Under the pieces are notes generated by a model, which was given only the letters and a program-made list of their open reading frames with translations, ran no database searches and was not told the DNA's origin. Shown piece after piece: positions 37,244 through 53,380 of a DNA stretch of 53,380 bases. The stretch lies in the IMG/VR virus record IMGVR_UViG_3300045988_159805. One strand, written 5' to 3'. The DNA comes from a virus. The translations under genes and the position numbers were made by a program. Every line of letters begins with the position of its first letter. Position 1 is the first letter of the stretch.

Positions 37244-38650
37244 ATGCTGAAAGGAAAAACAGAATTGATCCTAACCGATGTCCGCACCGGATCACAGGAA
37301 AAAGTGTTGGAACATAACATGGTGACCAATGCTCTGTCAGATATTTTCCGGCAGGAAGGCTACATGAAAGACTGCGGCGTGATGTACAGCAGCATCGGAC
37401 AGCCGCTGTACACGTCCCTGCTGGGCGGCATTTTGCTGTTTGACACAGCACTGGAAGAAGATGCGTCCAAGTACTATGCGCCGCCGGGTGTGCGTCTGAC
37501 GGCATCTGGCGTGTATGGTATCAAGAATACCGTCAACAGCCTGCTTCGGGGAGATTATAATAGCGAGGAATCCAGGTTGGACTTAGATGCAAAAACCATG
37601 AAGTATGTCTATGATTTCCCCACGTCCAAAGGAAACGGCAAAATTGCAAGCGTATGCCTAACGTCAAAGTGGGCTGGATTCGATGGATATGGAGCAGCTG
37701 AAAACAACTATACCACAAGCGGCGATCAGTCCGGGAGCTTGTTGTACTCACTGGGCGGCAGCCGATACATGGCACACAATGGGGAATATACCATTGCCAT
37801 AGACGAAAAAAACGATGTGATGTACTCTGTCGCATTTGAAAAAAATCCAGAGTCCACCTCGTATGATTATAAAATCATCGTTTATAAGCGCTGGGCAAAT
37901 TTGAAGAATATCACAATTCTCCGGAACATCTACAGCTATCATCCACTAATGGAAAAAGTGGAACTGTCAACCGATAATTTCTATTCTTATTATTCGTCTA
38001 TAAACTATGATCGAATCAGCAATGCGATTTATGTTGTGGTCAACAACACCAGCAGCACTATTGGTTCCGGAAAAAACATTATTATATACTGCATCCCCCT
38101 AGATACGCTTAAACTGACTAAGATGTTAGTCACAAACACAACAGGCACATCCATTGTGCCGGCTAACTGCTATGTGTACAACGGATATTTGTATTGTTTC
38201 AAAAGCGATGCTGTATATAAAATCAGATTATCTGCAAGTGGTGATGTCACAAGGATGTCAACCCCGTCAAACTTCCAGCCGGTCTACACCAAGTGCATTT
38301 TTGAGCGCAATGGATTGATCTATGCTCCATACACATTCGGCGGCAGCAATGACCATAAAAATTATGCCATCATTGACACGGAGAAAAATATTGTTCTGTC
38401 CACCAATTGCCGTTCCGGCACATATACATATACTGGCGAATGGCAGATTGCGCCAATTATCGGAAATGACATCATGCTGTTCAAAAACGTCTATCGAAAT
38501 TCCGAACCGGAAACAGGGACATTCCAGATGCAGACGAATTACCTCGCCACCATCAATAATCTGTCCACACCGATCACAAAGACGGCGGCACAAACCATGA
38601 AGGTGATCTACACTATATCGGAGGGAGAACCGGATGCAGATACAGTATAA
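37244..38650 (+). CDS. tail/baseplate-associated hypothetical protein
   Basis: Trimmed to MLKGKTELILTD with an AAGGAGG RBS. Confidence 0.45.
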   Translation: MLKGKTELILTDVRTGSQEKVLEHNMVTNALSDIFRQEGYMKDCGVMYSSIGQPLYTSLLGGILLFDTALEEDASKYYAPPGVRLTASGVYGIKNTVNSLLRGDYNSEESRLDLDAKTMKYVYDFPTSKGNGKIASVCLTSKWAGFDGYGAAENNYTTSGDQSGSLLYSLGGSRYMAHNGEYTIAIDEKNDVMYSVAFEKNPESTSYDYKIIVYKRWANLKNITILRNIYSYHPLMEKVELSTDNFYSYYSSINYDRISNAIYVVVNNTSSTIGSGKNIIIYCIPLDTLKLTKMLVTNTTGTSIVPANCYVYNGYLYCFKSDAVYKIRLSASGDVTRMSTPSNFQPVYTKCIFERNGLIYAPYTFGGSNDHKNYAIIDTEKNIVLSTNCRSGTYTYTGEWQIAPIIGNDIMLFKNVYRNSEPETGTFQMQTNYLATINNLSTPITKTAAQTMKVIYTISEGEPDADTV

Positions 38651-40781
38651 CGGAAAAAGCAAAATTCTGCGGCGCATTGTGGCGTTGGTCAACCGGTCAC
38701 AGAATGTCGCACTGCGGCAGGACAACACCGACAAGAACACGCTGTACTGGACAGGTCTGGACGGCGTGGAGATCACTGTAAACATCCCGTCCGGAGCCGT
38801 GGAAGTAGATACGGAACTGTCCGAAACAAGTACCAATCCGGTGGAGAATCAGGCAATCACCAAAGAACTCGCTCAAAAAGCCGACAAATCCGTTATCCCG
38901 ACTGTAGGAGACGGCGTGCTGTCTGTGCAGCGTAACGGTAAGAGCGTGGGGACGTTTTCCGCAAATGCAGCAAAGGACACGGCTGTCAACATTTCCGTGC
39001 CAGAGAAGGTGTCTGAACTGGAAAACGATGCAGGCTACGGAACATACACCAAGCCCACTACAGGTATCCCCAAAAGCGACCTTGCAAGCGGTGTGCAGGC
39101 AAGTCTGGGTAAGGCAGATACAGCACTGCAAAAGCATCAGGACATCAGCGGTAAACTGGACAAAACCGGCGATGCAAGCAGCACCACCGCTTCATTTGCC
39201 GCAGCATCTTCCAGAGAAAATGTCAAGACTGGTGAAAAGCTGTCTGTGTTATTTGGGAAAATTGCGAAATGGTTCACCGATTTAAAAGCGGTGGCGTTTT
39301 CTGGGAGCTATAAAGATTTGTCGGATAAGCCCACGATACCAGACATTTCCGGTAAGCAAGACAAGCTGACTGCCGGCACAAACATCACCATCATCGGCAG
39401 CACCATCAGCGCAAAAGACACGACCTACGGCAATGCGTCGGCTAGTGTGGCTGGGCTGATGAGTGCGGCGGACAAAAGTAAGCTGGATGGGATTAATCTA
39501 GTACGATACCTGCGTTATAACGCTGCCGGGGGAATGATCAAAGGCACCTGGTATAAATTCGCTAGTTTTAATTGTACGCGATATTACAATTATTCAACTG
39601 CGATTTTTGTCGCTGGATTCAGATATGATGTCATGGGATTGTTTCGGATTACGGCAGGCAATGCGCAGGGAAAACCTGTGGCATCAAGAGTTTATATTTC
39701 AAACATAACCGGAGATTTACGAGGAATTGTCGGATACATCATAAATGGGAATACAGTAAATTTCTTCCTGAAACCAGGAACTGGCATGTACGGCTATGTT
39801 GCCAGAATTGGCGCAACGGCTGAAACCGGTGATTTTATAACACAAACCGATTTAGTTGCAGCGACCACGGAGGAAGCAGCAAGTATTGTCCCATTTACAG
39901 CAGCTGGCACAGATGTTGCATTTTCAAATCATTCCAATGAAACTGACAAAATATCAAATGGAACATTGCGATCTGGGTTCTATGTAAATGCTGCGGTCAA
40001 TTCTACGTCTGGCTACACATGGTTTCGCATGGCAACATGCAAAATATCTGGCGCATACGAAACCGTTAACACTACATTTTTGATAACCAATGGAATGACT
40101 GGTCAGGGTCTGCTATCGTGCGGTATCAGAAACGGCGGTACTGGAAAAACTGTGGAATCGTGTACGCTAGTTTTTTCGGCCAGAAACGGAAGCAGTGTTC
40201 CGCCCGGAATGTTTCGCATTGTTGCCATAAATAGCGATACGGGCGTAACATATGAACTGTGGGGACAGATAACTGCTAGATGGTATGGCGTTAGATACAC
40301 TGTTTTGGACGAACGAAATATTAGCGGTGGAAAGTATAACAATTGGAAACTAGAATCGCATTCAGACGCTGATGCAAAAACCGCACCCACAACAGGTAAT
40401 TATTATGTAAATTCCACAGATACGTCAATTGCCACCACCCTCACTGACTCCGGCTGGGTAGCCATGACACTGGGATCCTATGCTGCATCTGGCACTGTAC
40501 AATACCGTACCTATGGCAATCAGATCACGATCACTGGAAAAGTTGTATTGAAATCCGAAATTAGAACAAATTATCACGCACCACAATCAATCGCAAATAC
40601 AAAACTGGATTTTTCCAAAATCAAAGGCTGTTCTGGATTTGGGCGTTCATCGACCGGAACAGGCGTATATGTTCAAGCAACTCGATTTGGTGATGATAAT
40701 ATTATTGATGTGTTCTCAATCGACAGTAACATTGCCGCTGGTGCTACGCTGTATTTTACGATCACCGGATTTATTGACTAG
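38634..40781 (+). CDS. tail fibre / receptor-binding protein
   Basis: Fibre-type motifs SVAGLMSAADKSKLDGI and AFSGSYKDLSDKPT. The C-terminal half is more AT-rich. Confidence 0.65.
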   Translation: MQIQYNGKSKILRRIVALVNRSQNVALRQDNTDKNTLYWTGLDGVEITVNIPSGAVEVDTELSETSTNPVENQAITKELAQKADKSVIPTVGDGVLSVQRNGKSVGTFSANAAKDTAVNISVPEKVSELENDAGYGTYTKPTTGIPKSDLASGVQASLGKADTALQKHQDISGKLDKTGDASSTTASFAAASSRENVKTGEKLSVLFGKIAKWFTDLKAVAFSGSYKDLSDKPTIPDISGKQDKLTAGTNITIIGSTISAKDTTYGNASASVAGLMSAADKSKLDGINLVRYLRYNAAGGMIKGTWYKFASFNCTRYYNYSTAIFVAGFRYDVMGLFRITAGNAQGKPVASRVYISNITGDLRGIVGYIINGNTVNFFLKPGTGMYGYVARIGATAETGDFITQTDLVAATTEEAASIVPFTAAGTDVAFSNHSNETDKISNGTLRSGFYVNAAVNSTSGYTWFRMATCKISGAYETVNTTFLITNGMTGQGLLSCGIRNGGTGKTVESCTLVFSARNGSSVPPGMFRIVAINSDTGVTYELWGQITARWYGVRYTVLDERNISGGKYNNWKLESHSDADAKTAPTTGNYYVNSTDTSIATTLTDSGWVAMTLGSYAASGTVQYRTYGNQITITGKVVLKSEIRTNYHAPQSIANTKLDFSKIKGCSGFGRSSTGTGVYVQATRFGDDNIIDVFSIDSNIAAGATLYFTITGFID

Positions 40782-40790
40782 GAGGTAATT

Positions 40791-41195
40791 ATGAAAGAAA
40801 CAATCTGCACAGTCGTCGGAGTTGTCGGCAGCTTTGTCGCATGGCTGTTCGGCGGATGGGACACAGCACTGGCAACGCTGCTGATCTTTATGGCGGTAGA
40901 CTATGTGACAGGGCTGATTGTCGCAGCTGCCGGAAAATCGCCGAAGGGCAAGCTGTCCAGCAAGATCGGCTGGAGAGGACTTGCCAAAAAGTGTGTTGTG
41001 CTGCTGCTGGTTCTGGTAGCGGCACAGCTGGACGTGGTTCTCGGCATGGACTATGTGCGTGCAGGCGTGTGTGTTGCGTTTCTGTGCAATGAGGTGATTT
41101 CCATTTTGGAAAACGCCGGCTTGATGGGCGTACCGCTGCCGGCGGCACTGAAAAACGCTGTGGAATTACTGCAATCGAAAGGAAAAGGTGAATGA
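40791..41195 (+). CDS. holin (phage_holin_4 / TcdE-like)
   Basis: FGGWDTALATLLIFMAVDYVTGLIVAA ... GWRGLAKKCVVLLLVLV. Confidence 0.75.
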   Translation: MKETICTVVGVVGSFVAWLFGGWDTALATLLIFMAVDYVTGLIVAAAGKSPKGKLSSKIGWRGLAKKCVVLLLVLVAAQLDVVLGMDYVRAGVCVAFLCNEVISILENAGLMGVPLPAALKNAVELLQSKGKGE

Positions 41196-42082
41196 GTATG
41201 AAAGGAATCGATGTATCGAAGCATCAAGGCAATGTGAACTGGTCGCATGTCAAGGCAGACGGTGTGAAGTTTGCCATTATCCGTGCGGGCTACGGCAAGC
41301 AGGCATCGCAGAAAGACACGCAGTTTGAAGCCAACTACACCGGCTGCAAGTCACAGGGCATCCCCTGCGGTGCATACTGGTACAGCTACGCTGCCACGCC
41401 GGCAGAGGCAAAGCAAGAAGCTGCTGTTTGCCTGAGCGTTATCAAGGGCAAGACATTCGAGTACCCCGTGTATTTTGACATCGAGGAGCCAAGCGTGCTT
41501 GTAAAGGGCAAGGCAGCCTGCACCGCCATTGCAAAGGCATTTTTGGAAGCCGTAGAACAGGCAGGCTATTTTGTGGGAATTTACTCCAGCAAAGTACATC
41601 TGGAAAACTGCATCACAGAAGAGTTGCGGGCACGGTATGCTGTCTGGGTGGCACACTACGGCGTGGATAAGACCACCTACCACGGACAGTACGGCATCTG
41701 GCAGAAGTCCAGCACAGGCAAGGTGAGCGGCATTCGGGGCAATGTGGACATGAACGAGTGCTACACGGACTACCCGGCAGCCATCCGCAAGAAAGGGCTG
41801 AACGGGTTCAAGGCTGTCCAGACCGCAGCAACAGCGAAGCCGGCACAGGCGAAGTCCTGGAAGAAAGGTCAGGCGGTGCACATCGGCAGCAATGTACCAC
41901 TGTTCGCCAACGAAACTACTACCACACCCGCTGCCCGACTGACTGCCGGAACGTACTACATCTACGACGGCGTGCCTTGTAAGCTGGGACGGTATCGTGT
42001 TACTACTACGGCGGCTTCCTGCGGTAAGACACCAGTCGGGAAGTATGTCACAGGGTATGTGTCGTGGGATAATTTCAAGTAA
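41192..42082 (+). CDS. endolysin: GH25 muramidase plus C-terminal binding domain
   Basis: GIDVSKHQGNVNWSHVKADGVKFAIIRAGYG ... YWYSYA ... DIE. Confidence 0.8.
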   Translation: MSMKGIDVSKHQGNVNWSHVKADGVKFAIIRAGYGKQASQKDTQFEANYTGCKSQGIPCGAYWYSYAATPAEAKQEAAVCLSVIKGKTFEYPVYFDIEEPSVLVKGKAACTAIAKAFLEAVEQAGYFVGIYSSKVHLENCITEELRARYAVWVAHYGVDKTTYHGQYGIWQKSSTGKVSGIRGNVDMNECYTDYPAAIRKKGLNGFKAVQTAATAKPAQAKSWKKGQAVHIGSNVPLFANETTTTPAARLTAGTYYIYDGVPCKLGRYRVTTTAASCGKTPVGKYVTGYVSWDNFK

Positions 42083-42103
42083 CACAGAAATGATAATCTG
42101 ATG

Positions 42104-42238
42104 CAAATAACGAAAAAACCGGCAGTACAAAACAGAAAATCTTCTGCGCAAATAACGAAAAAACCGGCAGTACAAAACAGAAGATCTTCTGCGCAAATAA
42201 CGAAAAAACCGGCAGTACAAAACAGGAAACCTCCTGCT
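42104..42238. repeat. 3 x 45-bp tandem repeat at the prophage right end
   Basis: Units begin at 42104, 42149 and 42194 (CAAATAACGAAAAAACCGGCAGTACAAAACAGnAnnnCTnCTGCG). Only the last unit is completed into a hairpin. Confidence 0.8.
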
Positions 42239-42255
42239 GTACTGCCGGTTTTTTT
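42209..42255 (+). terminator. intrinsic terminator after the lysis genes
   Basis: Stem CCGGCAGTACA/TGTACTGCCGG followed by T7. Confidence 0.7.
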
Positions 42256-42352
42256 GTACCGAAATTGTCGTACTAAGTGTCGTACTACTGTTTTTTCATA
42301 AAACCAAAAAGCACGCAGTCCCGGCATACCGCCGGAGCTACGTGCAAATTCT

Positions 42353-42428
<76 letters not shown>

Positions 42429-42693: not shown

Positions 42694-43800
42694 TCATTCG
42701 CAGGTGACAATATATCCGCTGATGTTGTCGCCGGATGCGGTATAGGTCTTGCCGGGGATGGTCACATCCACATCGTTTGTGCCGCCGATGCCCACATAGA
42801 ATACCTTATACTGCTTTCCGTCCGCTGTGATCTCCAGCGGATTTGCCGGGGTGTAGCTGTGGATCTTGTCCACATACTCTTCCAGGCACAGCTTGTGTTC
42901 TGTCATGTAAACAGCGTGGGGAACGCCCACATAGCGGAAGGTATAGCTGCGGCTGTCCTCGCCGGTCTTTTCTTCCTTGCCGTCCGGATAGCGCACCACA
43001 AAGCCGTACTCTGCGGCGTGTTCAGCGATCCAGCTGTACTGCGGATATTTCTCCGCATTATAATAGTCCGAAGTGCCGTCTCCGAAGTTGATCTTCAGAT
43101 TAAAGCTTCTGCCGCTGTGATAGTCGGATGTGCCGCCTTTGAAGTCGGTGCTGCCGTCTGCATACCGTGCATCCTGGTCTGCCTTGTCCCGATAGCCGCT
43201 GAATACCTGCATTCCGCTCAGTCCGGTCTCCTTTTCAAATGCCGCCATCATCTCGTTCAGATGCTGGATCGTCTCAGCGTCCAGCTGGACTTCCATATCG
43301 CTGACGCTGTAGGAACTGTTCCGGTTCTCATAGACACTTTTGAGTTTCGGGTCGCCAGTGGGGAAATCGTAGGAGTGATCTTTGTTAATAAGGATCAGAT
43401 CGCCCTTGTTCACGCCCTTGGCAGCCAGTGTGATCTGCTTGCCGTCGGTCAGACTGCTTTCCTCTGCCTGCGTTGTCTTTGTGGTGTCCGTAGCCACATC
43501 CGGTGCGTCGGTCTGGGTATCCTTTTCGCTGTTTTCAACCTTTTCGGCAGAAGTAGTCGCTGTTGCCACCGGTGTGCTGCCGGACTCCTCCGGGGACTTC
43601 CGGCGCTGGCAGCTGTGGAAACACAGTGCGCCGATCAGCAGGACGATCAGCAGAAACGGTACGCCCACCGCAGCGATGCGGTCCAGCCGGAGCTTGCGTT
43701 TTCTGGCGTGGCTGCCTCCTTTTCTGGCTGCTTTTTTATCCACATCCGGTTTCGGGGATGGTTCTTTTGCATGACTGATCGGTTTTTTCGGTTCGCTCAT
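42694..43800 (-). CDS. VanY / M15-family D-alanyl-D-alanine carboxypeptidase-like protein, membrane-anchored
   Basis: TM helix VGVPFLLIVLLIGALCF. Motifs SGYRDKADQ, SDYHSGRSFN and YTFRYVGVPHA are VanY-type. Confidence 0.7.
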   Translation of the reverse strand: MSEPKKPISHAKEPSPKPDVDKKAARKGGSHARKRKLRLDRIAAVGVPFLLIVLLIGALCFHSCQRRKSPEESGSTPVATATTSAEKVENSEKDTQTDAPDVATDTTKTTQAEESSLTDGKQITLAAKGVNKGDLILINKDHSYDFPTGDPKLKSVYENRNSSYSVSDMEVQLDAETIQHLNEMMAAFEKETGLSGMQVFSGYRDKADQDARYADGSTDFKGGTSDYHSGRSFNLKINFGDGTSDYYNAEKYPQYSWIAEHAAEYGFVVRYPDGKEEKTGEDSRSYTFRYVGVPHAVYMTEHKLCLEEYVDKIHSYTPANPLEITADGKQYKVFYVGIGGTNDVDVTIPGKTYTASGDNISGYIVTCE

Positions 43801-44129: not shown

Positions 44130-44212
44130 GCGGATGTGGTGAAATTGGCAGACACGATAGATTTAGGTTCTATTGCTCCGGCGTGCAGGTTCAAGTCCTG
44201 TCATCCGCACCA
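44130..44212 (+). tRNA. tRNA-Leu (anticodon TAG), long variable arm, CCA encoded
   Basis: Acceptor GCGGATG/CATCCGC. Anticodon stem ATAGA/TCTAT with loop TTTAGGT. Confidence 0.85.
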
Positions 44213-44217
44213 GAACA

Positions 44218-44267
44218 AAACGCTCAGAAATGACGCAGCTGCGTTGTTTCTGAGCGTTTCTTTTTTT
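44218..44267 (+). terminator. intrinsic terminator after tRNA-Leu
   Basis: Stem AAACGCTCAGAAA/TTTCTGAGCGTTT followed by a T-run. Confidence 0.75.
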
Positions 44268-44663: not shown

Positions 44664-44692
44664 TTGACATTTCTAGGGCAATGTGGTATACT
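44664..44692 (+). promoter_or_regulatory. promoter of the island operon
   Basis: TTGACA(44664-44669)-17-TGgTATACT(44684-44692). Confidence 0.65.
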
Positions 44693-44813
44693 TAATTTGA
44701 TAAATAAAGTTGGAATTATATTGGACTTTTGTATAAAGTGCATAAAATTAAAACTGTAATCGTTAGCTTGTTTATACTATTTGAATTAAAATAATGTGAG
44801 AGGAATGATTAAA

Positions 44814-47375
44814 ATGATAGTGTACAAAATAGCTGCAATTCCAGATATCACTCTAAGCAAATATCAGGCCTATGCAGAATCAGGCGTTGAGGGCATGATA
44901 AAAACACAACTGCAATTCATTCGAATGGTGCATAGAATTATTGCGTTGGACCGTATTCATGTACACTATATTTTTGATTATGATCCAGAAAAAAGTTTAG
45001 GCAATCGTTTGAGCATTTATATTGCGTTTTCAAAAGAAAATGACACCGCATCTGTCATTGAAGAAAAGCTAAAGAAGATTGTACTTTCATCAAATATTTC
45101 GAAGTACTTCTTCTTTCAGGAAGTCTCTGATGATTTAATTCCATCTAAAGAATACGTGTATCGGTCTGTTCTGTATAAAAAAGAGCGCTCTTTAGACGTA
45201 AATGTTGGAGAACAGACGCAAAAATTTTATGTTGTTCCAAATTGGGAAATTAACGAGGAAGCTCGTTTGTATAACTTGATTACATTAATGGCATCTCTGA
45301 ATGAGCGTTGTTGCTATTGCGTTGATTTTGGAGTTCCGCTTAATATCGTAGAAGATGTACATAAAAGTTTTGAAAAGCCTTTGAGCTTTTTGAGGAACTA
45401 TTCAACTCAAGATGGTCCTGCACTTAGTGATGCTAAAAAAAGTCAAAAAAATCGAAGAGATCCTAATGTTGATGAAGTTATAAAACAATATGAGGACTGG
45501 ATAAAAAAAGTTGATACTTCGTTAGTATATCGCTGTAGGATACAATCACTTTCGGACAGCAGTTCTACTAGTATAATCCTTTTGAATGCGGTTATAACGG
45601 AATCAATTGAAAGTGGAAATGCAGCTACAAAATTAGAAAAAGGAAGTTTTACGCCTTTCTCAAATTGGAATAGCTATCCAGAAGGGTATCATCTTGGAAA
45701 TGCACCAGTTTCTTTACAGGACTGGACAACTACATTTACAGTTGAAGAACTTTGTGCATTTACGTGCTTACCTGTTTTGTATGATGGAGAAACGGTTGAG
45801 ATACCAAAAGAAACCGCAATGGTGGCTGAAACTAGTGGCATCTATTTAGGCAATGACAATAATCTTCATGAGATAATGATCCCGGAAAAGATGTTAGTGA
45901 AACATATGTTCGTTTGCGGCGTGCCTGGATCAGGAAAAACCAACACAATGCTGCATTTGGCAAACAGCCTGTGGAAGAAAAAAATACCTTTTCTTGTTTT
46001 AGAGCCAGCTAAGAAAGAGTATCGGGAATTATCGTTATTTCAAATTCCGGAATTACTGATTTTTTCTCCTTCGGCAAATACAAATTTTCCGTTAGAAATC
46101 AATCCCTTTGAGTTTCCTAAGGGATTGACCTTGTCAGAACATATTGAAAGTTTGTGTAAAGTATTTGAAGGCGCTTTTCCTATGCCGTCGCCTTCTCCCA
46201 AAATACTGAGTACTTCTATTCAGGCTGTTTATGAAAAGCATGGATGGAGTTATAAAGATGTAAACACAGGTACTAAAGAATACCCTACATTATCTGAATT
46301 GTATAAGCAATTCGAAGAAGAAATGTCCAAGACATCATATGATGGGGAAATGAAGGGCAATGTGCAGGCAGTTCTTCAAGTGCGAATAGGAAGTCTGCTG
46401 GAACGTGAACGCAAAGAAATTTTTGATGTAAAAAAATCTGTGATTGACCCGGAAGAATGGCTCACAAAACCAATTATTATTGAGTTGGAGTCTTTAGGTG
46501 AGGGCCCTGCAAATTTCGTAACACTTTTATTGTGTACATTGATAAGAGAAACGTTAAAGGCAGATCCTTTGAAGGAAAAGGAAAAGAAGATACGTCACGT
46601 TATTTTTATCGAAGAAGCACATAATTTAATTGCTCAAAAGGCACAGGTCGATGCAGAAGATTCTAACCCCAAAATAGCGGCTACTGCATTTATTGTTAAA
46701 ATGCTTGCAGAAGTACGTGCATTAAGAGAAGGAATTATTATTGCAGATCAGCTGCCAACGGCTATGGCGCCGGAAGTTATAAAAAACACGAATATTAAAT
46801 TGGTCCATCGTTTAACATCGGGCGATGACAGAGAATTGGTTGGCAGCACAATGTCGGCTAGTCCGTTGCAAATGGAGAATATGGCTACATATCTCCCTGG
46901 ACAAGCGTTATTTAGCTACGAAAAGTTGTTAAAACCATTTGAAATGCGAGTTTGCACGGTAGAAGAACATGGAGAAAAAACTCCAAATGACAAAGAATTG
47001 TTTGAAATCATGCAGAAAAAACCTGGATTTAGCAACTTGCAGAAAAGAAGAGTCAATAATGCGTTTGATGCTTTGAAAAAAGAAACAGATCGATTATATA
47101 AAGAAGAAACAGATATGATTGAGGAACTGTTTCGAAGTGAAGAAAATAAAAGAATATCCAGGTCAGTTGCAAAGCCGTATTTAGAATCTTGTTCGAATAT
47201 TTTTGTTGAAATCATGAAAAAGCAAAATGAAATCGATATAGAATATCAAAAACTATTTAGTGAAATTGATTTCTTAGATCAAGGAATATTTACGGATTAT
47301 TATGTCGTAAATAGAAGTATTGGACAGAGATTTAAGAAGGCGTATGGTGCGTTTTGTTCTAGATTAAACGGCTAA
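44814..47375 (+). CDS. HerA/FtsK-superfamily (DUF87-like) ATPase with a large unassigned N-terminal domain
   Basis: Start chosen by AGAGGA spacing. Walker A FVCGVPGSGKTNT. Walker B HVIFIEEAHNL. Downstream GIIIADQLPTAMAPEVIKNTNIKLVHRL is typical of HerA-like ATPases. The first ~370 aa have no motif I recognise. Confidence 0.7.
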   Translation: MIVYKIAAIPDITLSKYQAYAESGVEGMIKTQLQFIRMVHRIIALDRIHVHYIFDYDPEKSLGNRLSIYIAFSKENDTASVIEEKLKKIVLSSNISKYFFFQEVSDDLIPSKEYVYRSVLYKKERSLDVNVGEQTQKFYVVPNWEINEEARLYNLITLMASLNERCCYCVDFGVPLNIVEDVHKSFEKPLSFLRNYSTQDGPALSDAKKSQKNRRDPNVDEVIKQYEDWIKKVDTSLVYRCRIQSLSDSSSTSIILLNAVITESIESGNAATKLEKGSFTPFSNWNSYPEGYHLGNAPVSLQDWTTTFTVEELCAFTCLPVLYDGETVEIPKETAMVAETSGIYLGNDNNLHEIMIPEKMLVKHMFVCGVPGSGKTNTMLHLANSLWKKKIPFLVLEPAKKEYRELSLFQIPELLIFSPSANTNFPLEINPFEFPKGLTLSEHIESLCKVFEGAFPMPSPSPKILSTSIQAVYEKHGWSYKDVNTGTKEYPTLSELYKQFEEEMSKTSYDGEMKGNVQAVLQVRIGSLLERERKEIFDVKKSVIDPEEWLTKPIIIELESLGEGPANFVTLLLCTLIRETLKADPLKEKEKKIRHVIFIEEAHNLIAQKAQVDAEDSNPKIAATAFIVKMLAEVRALREGIIIADQLPTAMAPEVIKNTNIKLVHRLTSGDDRELVGSTMSASPLQMENMATYLPGQALFSYEKLLKPFEMRVCTVEEHGEKTPNDKELFEIMQKKPGFSNLQKRRVNNAFDALKKETDRLYKEETDMIEELFRSEENKRISRSVAKPYLESCSNIFVEIMKKQNEIDIEYQKLFSEIDFLDQGIFTDYYVVNRSIGQRFKKAYGAFCSRLNG

Positions 47376-47394
47376 AGAGAAAGGAATGATAGAT

Positions 47395-47877
47395 ATGGCT
47401 GGAAATAAAAGCTTAGAAACCAGAAAAAACAAGGTGAGTGAAATCGGCAAAAATATTGAAAAAAAGTCAGAAAGACTTTCAGAATTGCAGGAGGCTAAAG
47501 AGGCTGCAAGAGAATGGAGAATGCAAATAGAAAACAATGAAAATTTAGACGAAGAAGAAAGAAAGCAGGCAAGTGAAGTCTCAAACGAAAGATATGAAGC
47601 AATTTCAAAAGAAGCCTCAGAAGTTTCTAGTGAGGTAGGAGAAGACTTAAAAGAATTAGAAGATCTTAGAAATGAAACAAATGAATCGCTGGAAGCAGCT
47701 CAAAATGCGAAAAGTTCTGAAGATGATCTGGTAAGAACTTGCTCTGAACATGGGATTATTGTTCCAAAATCTAAGAGCTTAGACAGCAATATAAGAGGAA
47801 ATGAAAATCTGTTAAATGAAATAATTGAAAAAATGGGAAATGCAGAAGATATTGCAACTAAATTGGGTACTTTGTGA
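47395..47877 (+). CDS. acidic coiled-coil protein
   Basis: Glu/Lys-rich heptad-like sequence. The start is 47386 or 47395. Confidence 0.55.
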   Translation: MAGNKSLETRKNKVSEIGKNIEKKSERLSELQEAKEAAREWRMQIENNENLDEEERKQASEVSNERYEAISKEASEVSSEVGEDLKELEDLRNETNESLEAAQNAKSSEDDLVRTCSEHGIIVPKSKSLDSNIRGNENLLNEIIEKMGNAEDIATKLGTL

Positions 47878-47895: not shown

Positions 47896-48558
47896 ATGAC
47901 GTTCACAGAGAGAATGTCTTCTATGTTAAACCCGGATGTTTTATCTGCTGCAATAAAAGAACAGCAAAGCGCAGAAGATACAGGTTCTTATGGACGTTTG
48001 AAAAGAGATCAGAACATATGGAATCCGGATGGAAAGATCTCATCTGACCAGAACTCGCACACTTTGGGGGAAAAGACATTTCAAAGAGCATATTCAGATA
48101 TAAAAGTTGCAAAAGGAAATGCGACTGAGGAAGCGGTTTGTTATTCCCTAAAGGATCAGTTCTCTTCAATTGAAACACAGAGAAAAATAGATCTGGAAAA
48201 AAACACCTATACCAAATCGGATATCATAGCAACCCATGCAAATCAAAATATTCAGATCGGGGATATCTCTATAAAAGAAGGAGAGTCTATGGGTGTTGAA
48301 GTTAAGTGCGGAGAAGCGGCGTATCTTTCATCTCAAATATCGCACATTGATAAGCAATTAAGTGGATTTGATGTTTATGAAAGACAAGACGAATCTGTAA
48401 AGTTTCACAAGGTCGTTATGGTAACAGCAGACTACTATCAAATGTCAGATTCTTCAAAGGGACATCTGAATGATGTTGTGAAAAGTCACAATGCGTGTAT
48501 TCATGTTCTTCCATTTTTTGCAAATGACATAACGCAGACGATGGCGAGAATGGAATAA
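47896..48558 (+). CDS. hypothetical protein, possible PD-(D/E)xK nuclease fold
   Basis: Candidate core ...KSDIIATH...(27 aa)...GVEVKCG (D...ExK). The RBS is weak and the start is uncertain. Confidence 0.45.
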   Translation: MTFTERMSSMLNPDVLSAAIKEQQSAEDTGSYGRLKRDQNIWNPDGKISSDQNSHTLGEKTFQRAYSDIKVAKGNATEEAVCYSLKDQFSSIETQRKIDLEKNTYTKSDIIATHANQNIQIGDISIKEGESMGVEVKCGEAAYLSSQISHIDKQLSGFDVYERQDESVKFHKVVMVTADYYQMSDSSKGHLNDVVKSHNACIHVLPFFANDITQTMARME

Positions 48559-48590: not shown

Positions 48591-50384
48591 ATGGGATTAT
48601 TAGATTTAGCAGGAAAAGCAATTGGTGGTGCGGTGAATTTCACAGCAAGTGTAGCAAAAGAAGCGTATGATGCCTCAGTGGAGGATAAAATCGCACAAGA
48701 AACAAGTACCTCTGTAGATTCAGTTACAAATTCAATTGTGCAAATGCGATCCAATTGGACGGCTGCTGCAAATGACGTGAAAAAAAGAAAAGCAGAGGAA
48801 CTTTATCAGGAAGGCTTAAAAAAAGCCACGCATCAAATAACTGAATTTATTGGAACGACAGGCGTCAGAACAAAAGCATTTAATCTATATTATAGATTCT
48901 TAACCAATAATGCAGAACTTAGCGAATTAGCAAAATATGTGGATGGAATTTATAATGCTGTCCTGGACAAAGAAGAATCGTCTTACTTAAAAAAAGCACA
49001 GGAAAGTTCAGAATATAAAACTATATTTAACGAAGTACAAAAATCTTGGGTCAACGAAATAAAAAATGTGATTACGGAAAATCTAAAGGGAAACGACGTA
49101 TTATGCCACACTGACAAACAAGACAAAAGAATACCTTTTGTGGGAATATCAATGTTCTTAATAGATGGTTTCTATCTTTTCTTATTGCTGAAAAAAATCA
49201 CAAACGATTTTAAGTACGATGATATGATGGAAATAGTCTCCACATATTGCAAACGAAATCTGTATCTACTGAATGCGCTTTCAGAAAATGAATATGGAGA
49301 TTTTAATATTAACATAGGAGATAAACTTCTGGATGATGGACACACCTATGCTGCTATGGCAAAAGATGCAGTTATAGAAGCAAGACAGCATTTATCTGAC
49401 AATGAAACCGGATTTTTTGAAGGAATGAAAAAGTACTTGATTCCTTCACTTATAGAAAACACGAGTGTAAACCTTTGGCACTATGCAATGCAAAAACCGT
49501 TTGATCAAAAAAAGTTTAACGATGCAGTCGAAAATCGAAATTTCTTTACAGCAACGGCAGGAAATGATTTTGAAGTTGTTTTGGCGGAACTATATGTAAA
49601 AAACCAATTGGGTGGAAGTGAGCTTGTTCTTCAAAACCTAGATGAGATTTTGAAAGAGGCATCAGTTTCTAATCCCGGATATGCAAGAAGCCTATGCTCT
49701 TTTCTTGCATGGATGGAATGCTATGATCTTGAGTATGAAGTTTTGAAACGAACTGTGGCAAATAAAATCCAACTGTCAGAAGAAATGCAAAAGCGTTTAT
49801 CGTTCCTGGCTGACGGCGGAAAAACAGCGGCAATTAAAATATATCATGTGGATGATCCATCTGCATTTTGCTTTGACACACATTCACTTGAATGGGGTAG
49901 TGCTGAATTTGAAATGCTGTTTCGTAAGCTAAAAGCAAGCAACACAAAATTGGATTATGCACTTGTTATAAAAGGGTGGCATAAACCTTTTCCCATTCAG
50001 TATGGAAAGAAATTTCATATTGAAGCGTTAGAGCGAGAATTTGAAAATCTTTTGTCAGATTTTAGCGGAGAGGTTCTTTTAGAAAAAAAATCTGCCCATG
50101 CTCTGAATGTAAACAACATGAATTATGATACGTCATATGTTTTTCATTTTACTTCTGAACGAAATCGTGGTGTAAATGTTCTGTTTGAATGCGAGAAATT
50201 CGGACGTAATTTACAACTGAATATTCTAGTTACATTTTTACCAGACAGTGATATGAGTTATGATGATATGTTGCAGTATGCACTGTCAGCAAAAGACAGC
50301 GTTTATGTAAAAAGTTTCCTGGAATCAATTTTGCAGGCAATTGATTCTTCATTGACCGCAAATTCTGCATCGATTTATGACTAA
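48591..50384 (+). CDS. 597-aa protein of unknown function, paralogue of 51152-52978
   Basis: AAGGAGG RBS. Alignable by eye with the last gene, e.g. FLAWMECYDLEYEVLKR versus ALAWMELYDIELMVLKK, and FHFTSERNRGVNVLFECEKFGRNLQLNILV versus FHFISERNRCISMLFHAEKFGKNLNITILT. Confidence 0.65.
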   Translation: MGLLDLAGKAIGGAVNFTASVAKEAYDASVEDKIAQETSTSVDSVTNSIVQMRSNWTAAANDVKKRKAEELYQEGLKKATHQITEFIGTTGVRTKAFNLYYRFLTNNAELSELAKYVDGIYNAVLDKEESSYLKKAQESSEYKTIFNEVQKSWVNEIKNVITENLKGNDVLCHTDKQDKRIPFVGISMFLIDGFYLFLLLKKITNDFKYDDMMEIVSTYCKRNLYLLNALSENEYGDFNINIGDKLLDDGHTYAAMAKDAVIEARQHLSDNETGFFEGMKKYLIPSLIENTSVNLWHYAMQKPFDQKKFNDAVENRNFFTATAGNDFEVVLAELYVKNQLGGSELVLQNLDEILKEASVSNPGYARSLCSFLAWMECYDLEYEVLKRTVANKIQLSEEMQKRLSFLADGGKTAAIKIYHVDDPSAFCFDTHSLEWGSAEFEMLFRKLKASNTKLDYALVIKGWHKPFPIQYGKKFHIEALEREFENLLSDFSGEVLLEKKSAHALNVNNMNYDTSYVFHFTSERNRGVNVLFECEKFGRNLQLNILVTFLPDSDMSYDDMLQYALSAKDSVYVKSFLESILQAIDSSLTANSASIYD

Positions 50385-50402
50385 TAAGAAGGTGATGTTA
50401 AA

Positions 50403-51134
50403 ATGAATGAAGAAAGAACACTGACAAAAGAACAGCAGCAGGCATTTGAAGAGATGCTTCAAGAAAAAACCTATTGCGGTGATGCGTTTTCAGCTTTTCG
50501 CTTGTTCACTAATTATTTGAAGGGAACAAATGGGTTCCGAAAAGATCCAGACAAGGCGTTTGAATATTTGAAAATCTCATCAGACTTAGGCTATCCACAC
50601 GCAATTAACCTTCTGAAATTGTTGTATAGTGGAAATGACTTGTATGGCTTAAAAATTGAACGTGATTTAAGAAAACGAATAGAGTGCCTTGAAAAATTAA
50701 GTGTTGCAGATCAACTCTTTGATTTTTCGACTGTGACGGAAGAAGAGCGAAATGAATTTTACCAGATGGAGTGGAATGCTCTGGCTGAACTAGGGCGGTT
50801 ATATATACTTGATTCTACTTTATATGAGGAAGATAACTATAAAGGTTATTGCCTTTCATTGTATGTAGCAGGACAGAAAGGAACACCAGAGTCGTTGTGT
50901 ATGCTGGGCTACTATTTTGATTGTTACAGACCTCCACAGTATGTACCATCGAATACCTTATTAAAAAAACGTGGGAATCTGGGAACTGCATTATATTACT
51001 ATGAGTGCGCAATCAATACAGATAATTCTAAGTATGCTAATCTTGCTTTAGAGCAGTATAATCGATTGGCAGAACAAATTAATGTGAGCGAAGGCAGAAC
51101 CGAAGAAAATATGATTCCATATTACAGAAGATAA
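50403..51134 (+). CDS. Sel1-like (SLR/TPR-type) repeat protein
   Basis: GFRKDPDKAFEYLKISSDLGYPHAINLLKLLYSG and further degenerate SLR units. Confidence 0.55.
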   Translation: MNEERTLTKEQQQAFEEMLQEKTYCGDAFSAFRLFTNYLKGTNGFRKDPDKAFEYLKISSDLGYPHAINLLKLLYSGNDLYGLKIERDLRKRIECLEKLSVADQLFDFSTVTEEERNEFYQMEWNALAELGRLYILDSTLYEEDNYKGYCLSLYVAGQKGTPESLCMLGYYFDCYRPPQYVPSNTLLKKRGNLGTALYYYECAINTDNSKYANLALEQYNRLAEQINVSEGRTEENMIPYYRR

Positions 51135-51151
51135 AGAAAAGAGGAAAAGAA

Positions 51152-52978
51152 ATGCTGGCATTTATTTTAATTGTAGGTGTATTAATTGCAATATACTTTA
51201 TTGTGAATAGTCAAAAAAGAAAAAAAGAGGAAGAACAGCGCCGATTAGAAAATGAACGAATAGCAAGAGAACAGCAAGAACAGGAAGCAAAACGTCTTGA
51301 GGCAGAGCGCATAGCAAAAGAAAAAAAGGAATTTGCCGAGGCAAAACATAAAGAATATGCGGATGTTCTAAGTGAACTTTATGATATGGGAATGAAAGAT
51401 GAAAATACATTTATCTCAACGGATGAACCGGCGTATAAAAAATTTATTTCTTGTCGGGAAAGTGCAATGCAACAGAAGGAAACAATGCAAATTTGGGGTG
51501 AGGAATACAAAAAATTTATTACAACGATCGACGATGATATAAAAAGTGAGATTTCAAGTATCGCTGCCCATTATCAAAGAATGCTTTTATCAGTACGCAT
51601 TGAATGGATCACTAGATATTTGAAAATCGTAAAGCTTGTTGTAAACACAAACGATTATGATGATACAATTCAAAAATTAAAAGAAACAGCAAAAACACTA
51701 AATCTTTTTTTGGAAAGTACATATTATATCGATCAACCATTCAATGACGAGCGTAATAGCTATGAATACGGCGTTTTTCATTTTTTGGAAGATAGTAGCG
51801 ATGAGGAAGTACGTCCAGAAGATTTATCAGCAGAAATATTAAGTTCAGATATGGATAAAGCTGAAGAACATTTCTCACAATTATATGAAATCGGAAAGGA
51901 AAAAGGTGTCAATTTCCAGATATACAAATCTTTGGCTGAATATATAACAGACGTTGACTATAGAAATAGTGCTATAGCGATGTGGTGCTTTGCTGCTAAT
52001 AAACCATTTGATGTTTCCAAATTTGAAAAGGCTTGTAAAATTTCTTCGTGGTATATAAGCTATGATGAAATTCAGTCCTTAGAGGTAATGATTGTACGGA
52101 TATACAACTGGAAATCTATTGGCGGCGCAAATGTTGTCAAGGAATATAGTCGAGATATTTTGAATTGGGTAGAGGAAACTGCGCAGTATTTCTCAGACCA
52201 AAAAACTGGGGAAAAGTATGGTTCATTAGTTTTCTACCATTTTGTATCTGCACTTGCATGGATGGAATTGTATGATATTGAATTGATGGTTTTGAAAAAA
52301 CTTGTAGATCTAAAAGTACAGCTCTGGGAAGATGCACAGGAACGTTTGAAATTTTTATCTTCTGGTGGTACAGCAAACGTACAGATTTATACGCCTGTAG
52401 AAAATGTCTTTTCGTTTGATACAAGTGCTGCTGAATGGAAGGATAATGAGATTGATGTATTCTTTAGAAAGATAAAAATGAAAAACATTCCATTGGAATA
52501 TTCTCTCGTTCGGAAAAAATGGACAAAAACATATCCGTTACAAACTGGACAGGAATATAGTGCAGATGCTCTGTATGCAGAATTTAGCAAGATGGTAGAC
52601 GATTTTGATGGAGAAGTAACGCTGACTCGAGAAGATGCAGTAGCTTTGAACACAAAAAATGTAAGATATTCTGATGCAATGATCTTTCATTTTATTTCCG
52701 AGAGAAATCGTTGTATTTCAATGCTGTTTCACGCAGAGAAATTTGGAAAAAATCTAAACATTACAATATTGACACTATTCACACCAGAAAAGAATGTTCC
52801 GGTTGAAGATCTTGAACGTTATGCCATTGCGATTAAAAATAATGTATACGCAGAGAGTTTTCAGGAATCAATTTTGGAATCTTTAGATAGGATTTTGAAA
52901 GTACAAACAGAAGCATATGAAGATACAACAACTACAAATGAAAATGCAGAAGTTGATTTCAGTGGATTTTTCGATTAA
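51152..52978 (+). CDS. 608-aa membrane-anchored coiled-coil protein, paralogue of 48591-50384
   Basis: N-terminal TM helix MLAFILIVGVLIAIYFIV, then an EEQRRLENERIAREQQEQEAKRLEAERIAKEKKE coiled coil. The C-terminal ~350 aa are homologous to the fourth gene. Confidence 0.65.
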   Translation: MLAFILIVGVLIAIYFIVNSQKRKKEEEQRRLENERIAREQQEQEAKRLEAERIAKEKKEFAEAKHKEYADVLSELYDMGMKDENTFISTDEPAYKKFISCRESAMQQKETMQIWGEEYKKFITTIDDDIKSEISSIAAHYQRMLLSVRIEWITRYLKIVKLVVNTNDYDDTIQKLKETAKTLNLFLESTYYIDQPFNDERNSYEYGVFHFLEDSSDEEVRPEDLSAEILSSDMDKAEEHFSQLYEIGKEKGVNFQIYKSLAEYITDVDYRNSAIAMWCFAANKPFDVSKFEKACKISSWYISYDEIQSLEVMIVRIYNWKSIGGANVVKEYSRDILNWVEETAQYFSDQKTGEKYGSLVFYHFVSALAWMELYDIELMVLKKLVDLKVQLWEDAQERLKFLSSGGTANVQIYTPVENVFSFDTSAAEWKDNEIDVFFRKIKMKNIPLEYSLVRKKWTKTYPLQTGQEYSADALYAEFSKMVDDFDGEVTLTREDAVALNTKNVRYSDAMIFHFISERNRCISMLFHAEKFGKNLNITILTLFTPEKNVPVEDLERYAIAIKNNVYAESFQESILESLDRILKVQTEAYEDTTTTNENAEVDFSGFFD

Positions 52979-53053: not shown

Positions 53054-53083
53054 ATGAGCAGGAGAAAATCCTGCTCATTTTTT
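53054..53083 (+). terminator. intrinsic terminator of the island operon
   Basis: Stem ATGAGCAGGA/TCCTGCTCAT followed by T5. Confidence 0.75.
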
Positions 53084-53104: not shown

Positions 53105-53133
53105 TTGACAAACCAAATCAAAAGTGCTACAAT
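53105..53133 (+). promoter_or_regulatory. promoter of the terminal dockerin gene
   Basis: TTGACA(53105-53110)-17-TACAAT(53128-53133). Confidence 0.55.
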
Positions 53134-53227: not shown

Positions 53228-53380
53228 ATGAAAATGAGAAAGGTAATTTCAACCGTACTGGCAGGTGTGCTGGCATTGTCCGCACTTCCCATTTCTGCCA
53301 TGAGCGCCGGCGCTGAGGGAGCATATGCGCCGGGCGATGTGGATATGGATGGTGTTATCACCGGGCATGATGCAGCAGTG
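53228..53380 (+). CDS. 5' part of secreted dockerin-repeat protein (runs off window end), paralogue of the 1-153 gene
   Basis: AAAGGAG RBS. Translation MKMRKVISTVLAGVLALSALPISAMSAGAEGAYAPGDVDMDGVITGHDAAV. Confidence 0.7.
   Translation, partial: MKMRKVISTVLAGVLALSALPISAMSAGAEGAYAPGDVDMDGVITGHDAAV

Follow-up and report, generated by a model that had tools for sequence, protein, structure and literature searches.

Two paralogues of an unannotated protein family, one of them membrane-anchored, encoded in one operon with a predicted VirB4/HerA-clade ATPase

Results

The final 9 kb of a 53,380-nucleotide viral DNA stretch (IMG/VR record IMGVR_UViG_3300045988_159805, one strand, 5' to 3'; the whole stretch is called the window hereafter) is low in GC and is filled by six tightly packed open reading frames (ORFs) on the + strand, g1 to g6, of which the fourth and the sixth encode paralogous proteins of an unannotated family. 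g4 (48591..50384, +) encodes a 597-aa paralogue devoid of a transmembrane anchor, as assigned by BLASTP, profiles and its g4-type clade. g6 (51152..52978, +) encodes a 608-aa transmembrane-anchored paralogue, the usual architecture of the family, as assigned by BLASTP, profiles and hydropathy. Encoded together with an ATPase of the VirB4/HerA type and an exchangeable toxin gene, the family most likely belongs to an undescribed membrane-tethered conflict system, serving either defence or toxin delivery.

Homology of the fourth and sixth proteins

BLASTP of g4 against g6 gave 120 identities in 336 aligned positions (36%), with 58% positives and an E-value of 2e-69, spanning residues 276-597 of g4 and 258-591 of g6. 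The long colinear blocks that the initial annotation had matched by eye between the two proteins are borne out, as all six peptides quoted there are present and the pairwise alignment is significant, far beyond chance. Alignment of the profile of 10 g4 orthologues with that of 11 g6 orthologues by hhalign covered 439 columns (g4 142-592, g6 111-586; E = 5.9e-69, probability 100%). In this comparison the homology ends ~110-140 residues from the N-terminus and the unrelated part of the two proteins is confined to that region, in accordance with the differing N-termini noted earlier.

All 36 family-invariant positions are retained in both g4 and g6, and the identity between the g4 and g6 clades is about that between separate single-copy lineages (30-36%). 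As judged from these comparisons, g4 and g6 are true ancient duplicates, both kept intact inside one six-gene + strand operon, which agrees with the earlier description of duplicated and diverged components in one operon.

The shared core and its distribution

The family core comprises residues 139-597 of g4 (49005..50381, +; hhalign and AlphaFold), consisting of a helical domain and a C-terminal α+β domain, and residues 109-590 of g6 (51476..52921, +; hhalign and invariant positions). The AlphaFold model of g4 139-597, built with 19 sequences, has a pLDDT of 84.0 and places the helical domain before the α+β domain. Searches of g4 and g6 against Pfam-A 2025, NCBIfam 20.0, PHROGs v4 and PADLOC 2.0 yielded no match better than E = 0.01, those seen falling outside the core, and the 19 family members matched no Pfam family at E < 0.02. 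phmmer and profile searches of the PDB with the core gave best E-values of 0.088 and 0.64, respectively, while Foldseek with the g4 core model returned 0 matches at E ≤ 0.001 in PDB and BFVD.

The C-terminal domain of the g4 model displays a weak but consistent resemblance to the START/Bet v 1 (SRPBCC) helix-grip fold, with matches to PYL1, polyketide cyclases and Ara h 8 (probability up to 0.97). These matches have E-values of 0.04-0.2 (best 0.043), TMt of 0.23-0.43 and a root-mean-square deviation of 6-15 Å, and no sequence signal accompanies them. The paralogue pair proposed in the initial annotation therefore stands, as the alignment is significant and the C-terminal domain matches no common characterised family. 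From sequence searches and the structural model, the g4/g6 core is an unannotated family, new to databases, with no confident structural relative.

An exhaustive profile search recovered the family as 271 clusters at E ≤ 0.001 among 1.84 billion representatives; a word-based search found 11 clusters from g4 and 26 from g6. The named sources are metagenome-assembled genomes of Oscillospiraceae, Ruminococcus, Fimimorpha, other Clostridia and Olsenella, along with one binned as Alistipes. Several contigs, including exact copies of window genes, come from human gut metagenomes, and hundreds of gut assemblies contain the operon variant of the window. The g6 core had no tblastn match among PLSDB plasmids or INPHARED phages, and a scan of IMG/VR found the family in one contig only. 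Across the family the core is constant and the N-terminal module is variable, being a transmembrane helix, a putatively lipidated module with two transmembrane helices, an amphipathic helix, or an S1, RCC1 or LGT (prolipoprotein diacylglyceryl transferase) domain; one member carries an internal L7/L12 C-terminal-domain insert.

Arrangement of the operon in related loci

About 25 distinct loci, denoted below by L numbers, were compared; searches with g4, g6 and the family profile led to them, and g1 homologues served as an independent starting point. The gene order is kept as a ~860-aa ATPase, a ~160-aa coiled-coil protein, a variable cassette, an optional pair of g4-type and Sel1 genes, an optional LGT paralogue and a transmembrane-anchored family member. 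In every locus with readable upstream DNA (~25 architectures) the family gene lies downstream of the ATPase and coiled-coil genes, usually with the cassette present, and the pairing of ATPase and family extends to a distant branch in which the ATPase is only 41.5% identical. Most loci have a single transmembrane-anchored copy and no Sel1 gene.

The loci are found mostly on integrative elements of gut and rumen Firmicutes, where they adjoin tyrosine integrases, serine recombinases and often a TraG, Replic_Relax and M48 module. ~13-kb operon-bearing elements split feoB in L006 and L008/L018, with FeoB_C and FeoB_N fragments on either side (L006 1188-2015 and 15384-16466; L008 322-1161 and 15824-16927); these elements hold a serine recombinase, a tyrosine integrase, the operon, an M48 peptidase, and TraG-like and Replic_Relax proteins.

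Variants of the arrangement were also recorded. The distant-subfamily operon (L027 103-7231; L028) has two g2-like coiled-coil genes 5' of the ATPase and no separate cassette gene, and its downstream genes include DUF2752 and, in L028, a TM7S3/TM198-like gene with multiple transmembrane segments. In L036 (5886-13983) a copy of the six-gene operon is broken into many short ORFs, being either pseudogenised or an error-rich assembly. L046, a 2.1-kb contig, joins a g6 core near-identical to that of the window to an unrelated N-terminus of ~100 residues free of transmembrane helices, as a variant or a chimera.

History of the duplication

Neighbour-joining trees (40-100 bootstraps, midpoint rooting), in which the deep branching among single-copy lineages is not separated, place all g4-type proteins in one clade with 100% support. 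The nearest outgroup to this clade consists of L039 and L041 (55% support), which are single-copy, possess a real transmembrane helix and are followed by a Sel1 gene. The initial annotation had raised the possibility that both copies always co-occur. This is not so, as most related operons have one transmembrane-anchored copy, and L013, L039 and L041 have a g4-clade protein with Sel1 and no g6-type copy. Across the loci the single transmembrane-anchored copy is the common state, and in the trees the g4 type is a derived clade.

Two further pairs were encountered. L025 has two sister transmembrane-anchored copies (100% support), one copy being present in its near-identical relative L015; L027 has a transmembrane-anchored copy and a copy without a transmembrane helix (starting MGLFGF, with an S1 RNA-binding domain), which are 47% identical and both lie within the distant subfamily. 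Together with the window type, these point to at least three independent duplications in this operon type. The trees are compatible with two possible origins of the double arrangement of the window, duplication in situ and the import of a g4 plus Sel1 module.

The Sel1-like repeat protein g5 (50403..51134, +; 243 aa) was assigned from a near-threshold Pfam Sel1 match (PF08238; E = 2.5e-6, 28.3 bits, just under the cut-off of 30.7) and its co-occurrence with g4-type genes. A Sel1 gene lies directly 3' of every member of the g4/L039 clade and never after a g6-type copy. A strict rule that the Sel1 gene accompanies copies lacking a transmembrane helix was rejected, as L039 and L041 are truly transmembrane-anchored g4-related members with Sel1; the association is therefore with the clade and not with the loss of the helix. 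In a separate lineage (L024, L029, L050, L051), the sole family copy is free of transmembrane helices, 575 aa long and starts M[AVT]KGF[FL]KGLWD. Here a ~203-aa Sel1 protein is encoded 5' of the ATPase, not after the family gene (L024 6490-7098; L029 4677-5291; L050 4677; L051 33), and g5 has weak repeat-level similarity to the L024 gene (E = 7e-5).

N-terminal regions and membrane anchoring

Residues 1-22 of g6 (51152..51217, +) form a predicted transmembrane helix with a 19-residue Kyte-Doolittle mean of 2.76, and residues 23-75 (51218..51376, +) a highly charged helical or coiled-coil linker with 16 K/R and 16 D/E in 56 residues. The transmembrane helix and charged coiled coil earlier assigned to the sixth protein are thus both recovered. 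Because basic residues trail the helix (positive-inside rule), the remainder of g6, including its core, is predicted to be cytoplasmic.

The N-terminus of g4, residues 1-20 (48591..48650, +; MGLLDLAGKAIGGAVNFTAS), is a conserved Gly-rich amphipathic segment, as evident from conservation, hydropathy and moment. Every g4-type protein begins with such a hydrophobic/amphipathic segment (MGLLDLAGKAIGGAVNF), with a mean hydropathy of ~0.9 and a hydrophobic moment of ~1.3. These N-termini form a graded series, from MGFLVFVGMIIG in L039, a real transmembrane helix, through MGFFSSLIGGAAGL in L013 and MGLLGNLIGGAFGL in L014 to MGLLDLAGKAIGG in g4 of the window. Since they grade in this way, the g4 N-terminus may be a decayed transmembrane anchor, possibly still membrane-binding. 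The contrast of a soluble-looking and an anchored copy drawn in the initial annotation thus applies insofar as g6 is anchored and g4 lacks a transmembrane helix, but a fully soluble g4 is at odds with its conserved hydrophobic/amphipathic N-terminus.

The internal hydrophobic stretch of g4 reported earlier (residues 181-201, IPFVGISMFLIDGFYLFLLL; 49131..49193, +) is indeed hydrophobic in the window, with a hydropathy of 2.0, but it is not a conserved transmembrane segment. In 7 of 10 orthologues the value is 1.2-1.5 and the segment contains D, E or K, so that hydrophobicity here is limited to the window and the two closest relatives. The g6 helix aligned with this segment is not hydrophobic, and the AlphaFold model confidently predicts the segment as one of the helices of the helical domain. 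This stretch and g6 1-22 are the only transmembrane-type segments across the operon proteins.

An LGT paralogue lies directly 5' of the g6-type gene in five distinct loci (L001 12543-15247; L008 9228-11920; L010 8281-10902; L016 4360-7088; L017 8878-11416). All five LGT-linked g6-type N-termini have two transmembrane helices and 2-6 cysteines. A lipobox-like [FIL][LIC]SC motif occurs at residues ~31-34 in four of these five loci and in none of seven loci without LGT. Protein P0046 is a direct fusion of LGT to the family.

The ATPase g1

g1 (44796..47375, +) was identified as a P-loop ATPase through DUF87 and through AlphaFold with Foldseek; its start is probably the Met located 6 codons into the 859-aa ORF, giving 853 aa. 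It passes the Pfam threshold for DUF87 (PF01935; E = 1.4e-10, 42.1 bits against a cut-off of 23.2), and its Walker A motif, GVPGSGKT, is unchanged across 60 homologues. The AlphaFold model (pLDDT 78.8) displays a ~330-aa α/β N-terminal domain and a ~120-aa C-terminal helical coil. Foldseek gave 79 matches at E ≤ 0.001, those listed being VirB4, HerA, DndH and TrwB ATPases. The top match is R388 TrwK/VirB4 over the whole length (E = 1.5e-10, 830 aligned columns); the DndH C-domain and Thermoanaerobacter VirB4 were matched at TMt 0.63-0.66, and HerA of the SIR2-HerA and DUF4297-HerA defence complexes and TdpAB at E-values of 1e-7 to 1e-5.

The best PADLOC match of g1 is mad8 (E = 2.7e-16), and weak matches were obtained to the DNA-translocating ATPases CedD (2e-19; 69.7 bits against a cut-off of 600), TrwB and FtsK (E ~0.06). 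No equivalog threshold was reached in NCBIfam (HerA_antiphage, 18.7 bits against a cut-off of 800), and no family threshold of type IV or type VII secretion systems, with no CagE_TrbE_VirB or AAA_10 match and TrwB_AAD_bind at E = 0.055. Sequence searches of the PDB with g1, g3, g4 and the family and g1 profiles gave nothing significant. The g1 family has >1,348 clusters, annotated only as 'DUF87' or 'ATP-binding protein'. Sequence and model together assign g1 to the VirB4/HerA/DndH clade of P-loop ATPases in the FtsK-HerA superfamily.

g2 and the variable third position

g2 (47386..47877, +) encodes an acidic coiled-coil protein of 163 aa, as suggested by its conserved position and by weak coiled-coil-type matches in PADLOC (JetC and LmuB; best E = 7.7e-5). 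It adjoins g1 in nearly all related loci on the downstream side, the exception being L027 with its two upstream copies.

g3 (47896..48558, +) encodes the 220-aa variable-cassette protein, assigned by position and by alignment of three orthologues. In the window, L012 and L005, position 3 holds a 220-aa protein whose conserved residues are E78/E79, D109 and E135-x-K137. By eye this motif resembles that of PD-(D/E)xK enzymes, and g3 is a putative nuclease; it has no match in Pfam, NCBIfam, PHROGs or PADLOC. The equivalent position was compared in L001, L004, L006, L014, L020 and L013, among others. Most loci have at this position an HExxH protein without a family match, followed by a gene for a 68-86-aa partner. 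L014 has a GH-E HNH nuclease (PF14410; 38.3 bits against a cut-off of 25) and L020 a coiled-coil protein with a Gly-zipper transmembrane tail, while in L013 the position is empty. Position 3 is best read as a swappable effector or toxin slot. A hidden ~80-aa partner gene in the window was ruled out, as tblastn finds no copy, and no small immunity gene adjoins the nuclease-type cassettes of the window, L012, L005 and L014.

Borders of the operon and flanking DNA

The GC content of the last 9 kb is 0.34-0.37, against ~0.50 in the preceding prophage-like region. A tRNA-Leu(TAG) gene (44130..44212, +; ARAGORN) marks the left border of the low-GC island, where GC drops from ~0.50 to ~0.35, and is followed by a terminator hairpin at 44218-44259 found by terminator scan. 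A candidate σ70-type promoter (44664..44692, +) has TTGACA, a 17-nt spacer and a TG-extended TATACT, and its assignment is by consensus match alone (11/12). An intrinsic-terminator-like hairpin with a 10-bp stem and a T run is located at 53054..53078 (+). Bracketed by this consensus-like promoter and terminator hairpin, g1-g6 probably form a single transcription unit. A search for att-like direct repeats joining the tRNA-Leu gene to the far end of the island found none beyond short chance repeats and two promoter copies.

Just 5' of the island, a prophage-like late/lysis region (38634-42082) contains ORFs which, read from their translations only, encode a 715-aa tail-fibre-like, a 134-aa holin-like membrane and a 296-aa endolysin-like protein. 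It is followed by a tRNA-Thr gene (42353-42428, -) and a VanY-domain gene (42694-43800, -; Pfam E = 1.8e-11). Between the endolysin gene and tRNA-Thr, at 42101-42301, ORFs on both strands carry a three-fold repeated peptide (ITKKPAVQNRK...), which suggests a tandem DNA repeat of ~48 nt. Past the operon terminator, a gene at 53229-53380 with its own promoter-like site (53105-53133, a consensus match) encodes a signal-peptide-like N-terminus and then a dockerin-like DVDMDGVIT motif; this suggests a cellulosome-bearing Ruminococcus or Oscillospiraceae host.

Discussion

The explanation that best accounts for the above observations as a whole, held at slightly below an even chance, is that the two paralogues, g4 and g6, serve as subunits of a single six-gene machine gained by horizontal transfer, a conflict system borne on mobile genetic elements and giving defence against phages and such elements. 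According to this explanation, g6 would tether the assembly at the cytoplasmic face of the membrane, and g4 with its Sel1 adaptor would associate with g6 through the core that the two paralogues have in common, so that a mixed oligomer serves as a platform. On it the hexameric ATPase g1 would be docked or regulated at the membrane, with the variable N-terminal modules of the family setting localisation or the sensed input. The ATPase would then engage incoming DNA at the membrane and license the gene-3 toxin, here the putative PD-(D/E)xK-like nuclease, resulting in defence.

Several observations weigh against this explanation. Most operons work with one copy, indicating that the machine can do without a g4-g6 heteromer, and the loci with a g4-clade protein and Sel1 but no g6-type copy indicate that g4 and Sel1 may act alone. 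The genes around the loci are ordinary cargo of mobile elements in which known defence genes are not enriched, and a PADLOC scan of ten neighbouring cargo genes gave no defence-island signal; the defence reading is provisional for this reason. The family is nearly absent from phage and plasmid collections, the nuclease assignment of g3 in the window rests on a by-eye motif, and the best full-length structural match of g1 is a secretion ATPase, VirB4, which would fit export equally well.

A toxin-export apparatus for interbacterial antagonism, in which g1 docked on the bitopic g6 and on g4 would export the gene-3 toxin, is a serious rival, though an unlikely one on balance: over its full length g1 is structurally most similar to VirB4, and a small partner gene invariably comes after the HExxH gene, the order seen in toxin-immunity pairs. 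The product of this ~70-86-aa gene would be the immunity protein, with g2 as a helical chaperone or targeting partner, and the dedicated LGT and lipobox-like motif also point to envelope-directed biology. However, the operon contains no polytopic channel protein, peptidoglycan hydrolase, WXG100 or LXG domain, and gene 3 is without a secretion signal. The nuclease-type cassettes lack an adjoining small immunity gene, the bulk of g6 is predicted to be cytoplasmic, and g1 falls under every threshold of type IV and type VII families.

A heteromeric membrane platform of g4 and g6 is plausible, and its co-assembly is suggested by the repeated emergence of two different copies that both keep all invariant positions. 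The at least three independent duplications, the 36 invariant positions in both copies and the strict linkage of g4 to Sel1 are consistent with it. Alternatively, g4 (together with g5) and g6 may be independent adaptors, each forming a homo-oligomer with the ATPase and conferring two input specificities or locations, which is likewise rated improbable. Such adaptors would accord with the occurrence of the g4 clade with Sel1 in the absence of g6-type copies and of g6-type copies alone in most loci, with the behaviour of g4 and Sel1 as a portable two-gene module, and with a distance between the two clades about as great as that between single-copy lineages. Against them, the pairing of a transmembrane-anchored copy with one lacking the helix (starting MGLF) re-arose in L027, and a pair of two anchored copies in L025, which suggests a recurrent advantage of two different copies in one assembly.

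The initial annotation had offered a sensor/effector split of g4 and g6 as an alternative to a heteromeric complex. Neither protein has a recognisable effector domain, and the division is argued against by the presence of the effector or toxin slot at position 3, where the swappable toxin-like gene is the obvious effector.

A role in the life cycle of the element itself (DNA translocation, transfer, exclusion or maintenance), in which g1 would pump DNA while anchored to the membrane through the g6 family, is quite improbable: the operon does lie beside a TraG-type coupling protein, Replic_Relax, M48 peptidase and integrases on ~13-kb elements in six loci (five distinct: L004, L006, L008/L018, L019, L049) and g1 has its weak matches to DNA-translocating ATPases, but such a role is made less likely because the operon occurs without nearby transfer genes in the window, L025 (among metabolic genes), L010, L021 and L024 and carries a toxin cassette that is unexpected for a transfer module, the CedD score being far below its cut-off.

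Comparison with known systems

The conflict system proposed here most closely recalls HerA-scaffolded defence (SIR2-HerA, DUF4297-HerA/Nezha) and DndFGH/TdpAB, as g1 belongs to the HerA/DndH clade (TMt 0.66 to the DndH C-domain) and its gene is accompanied, on mobile DNA, by that of a separate, small, effector-like protein. Unlike these systems, the operon has no SIR2, DUF4297, NurA or Dnd partner in a PADLOC scan, in which the SIR2-HerA, DUF4297-HerA and HerA-NurA partner models found no match, the PADLOC matches of g2 being of the weak coiled-coil type, with one for g6 at E = 0.061 and none for g3-g5. g1 also has the extra ~330-aa N-terminal domain and C-terminal coil, and its signature partners are a membrane-anchored protein of an unannotated family and a coiled-coil protein. 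The likeness to MADS is restricted to the match of g1 to mad8, as g2-g6 match no mads model in PADLOC.

In type IV secretion, VirB4 on the bitopic VirB3/VirB8 is similar in that a two-domain soluble ATPase is encoded beside single-pass membrane proteins. However, the present operon is without a VirB6-like channel, a VirB8 (NTF2) fold, a hydrolase or a pilin, g1 matches no VirB4 family model, and the g4/g6 core has no fold match to any part of that machinery. With the type VIIb system (EssC, EssB and LXG toxins) it has several traits in common: the ATPase belongs to the FtsK/HerA superfamily, a bitopic protein places a large domain on the cytoplasmic side, small helical proteins are encoded, and the toxin is exchangeable and in some cases followed by a small partner. 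It differs from that system in the single ATPase domain of g1, which has no transmembrane or FHA region and scores 13.2 bits against a cut-off of 24 for FtsK_SpoIIIE, and in the lack of WXG100/LXG matches.

A literature search returned no description of this operon type, only the general polymorphic-toxin framework as outlined by Zhang et al. The operon lies outside every described system tested and is best filed as a variant of the HerA/VirB4-ATPase-based conflict modules with a new signature subunit family.

A bolder form of this reading, doubtful but worth stating, is a self-contained conflict system of gut and rumen Firmicutes in which the ATPase would be held at the inner membrane face by the new-fold family. 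The transmembrane copy, the copy with a relic of the helix and the Sel1 adaptor would form a heteromeric sensing platform, nuclease or metallopeptidase toxins would be unleashed on infection or exported, and a dedicated LGT would attach lipid to an internal Cys in a polytopic protein, an unusual use of LGT.

The ATPase of this operon type accounts for >1,300 sequence clusters in public data, yet its partner family is nameless and without a domain model or structural relative. The repeated, independent pairing of anchored and unanchored paralogues offers a concrete, testable handle on how the machine is assembled. If the reading as defence or toxin delivery is true, human-gut Clostridia, which are under-represented in the discovery of defence systems, would gain a type that is tethered to the membrane, driven by a HerA/VirB4 ATPase and equipped with modular effectors.

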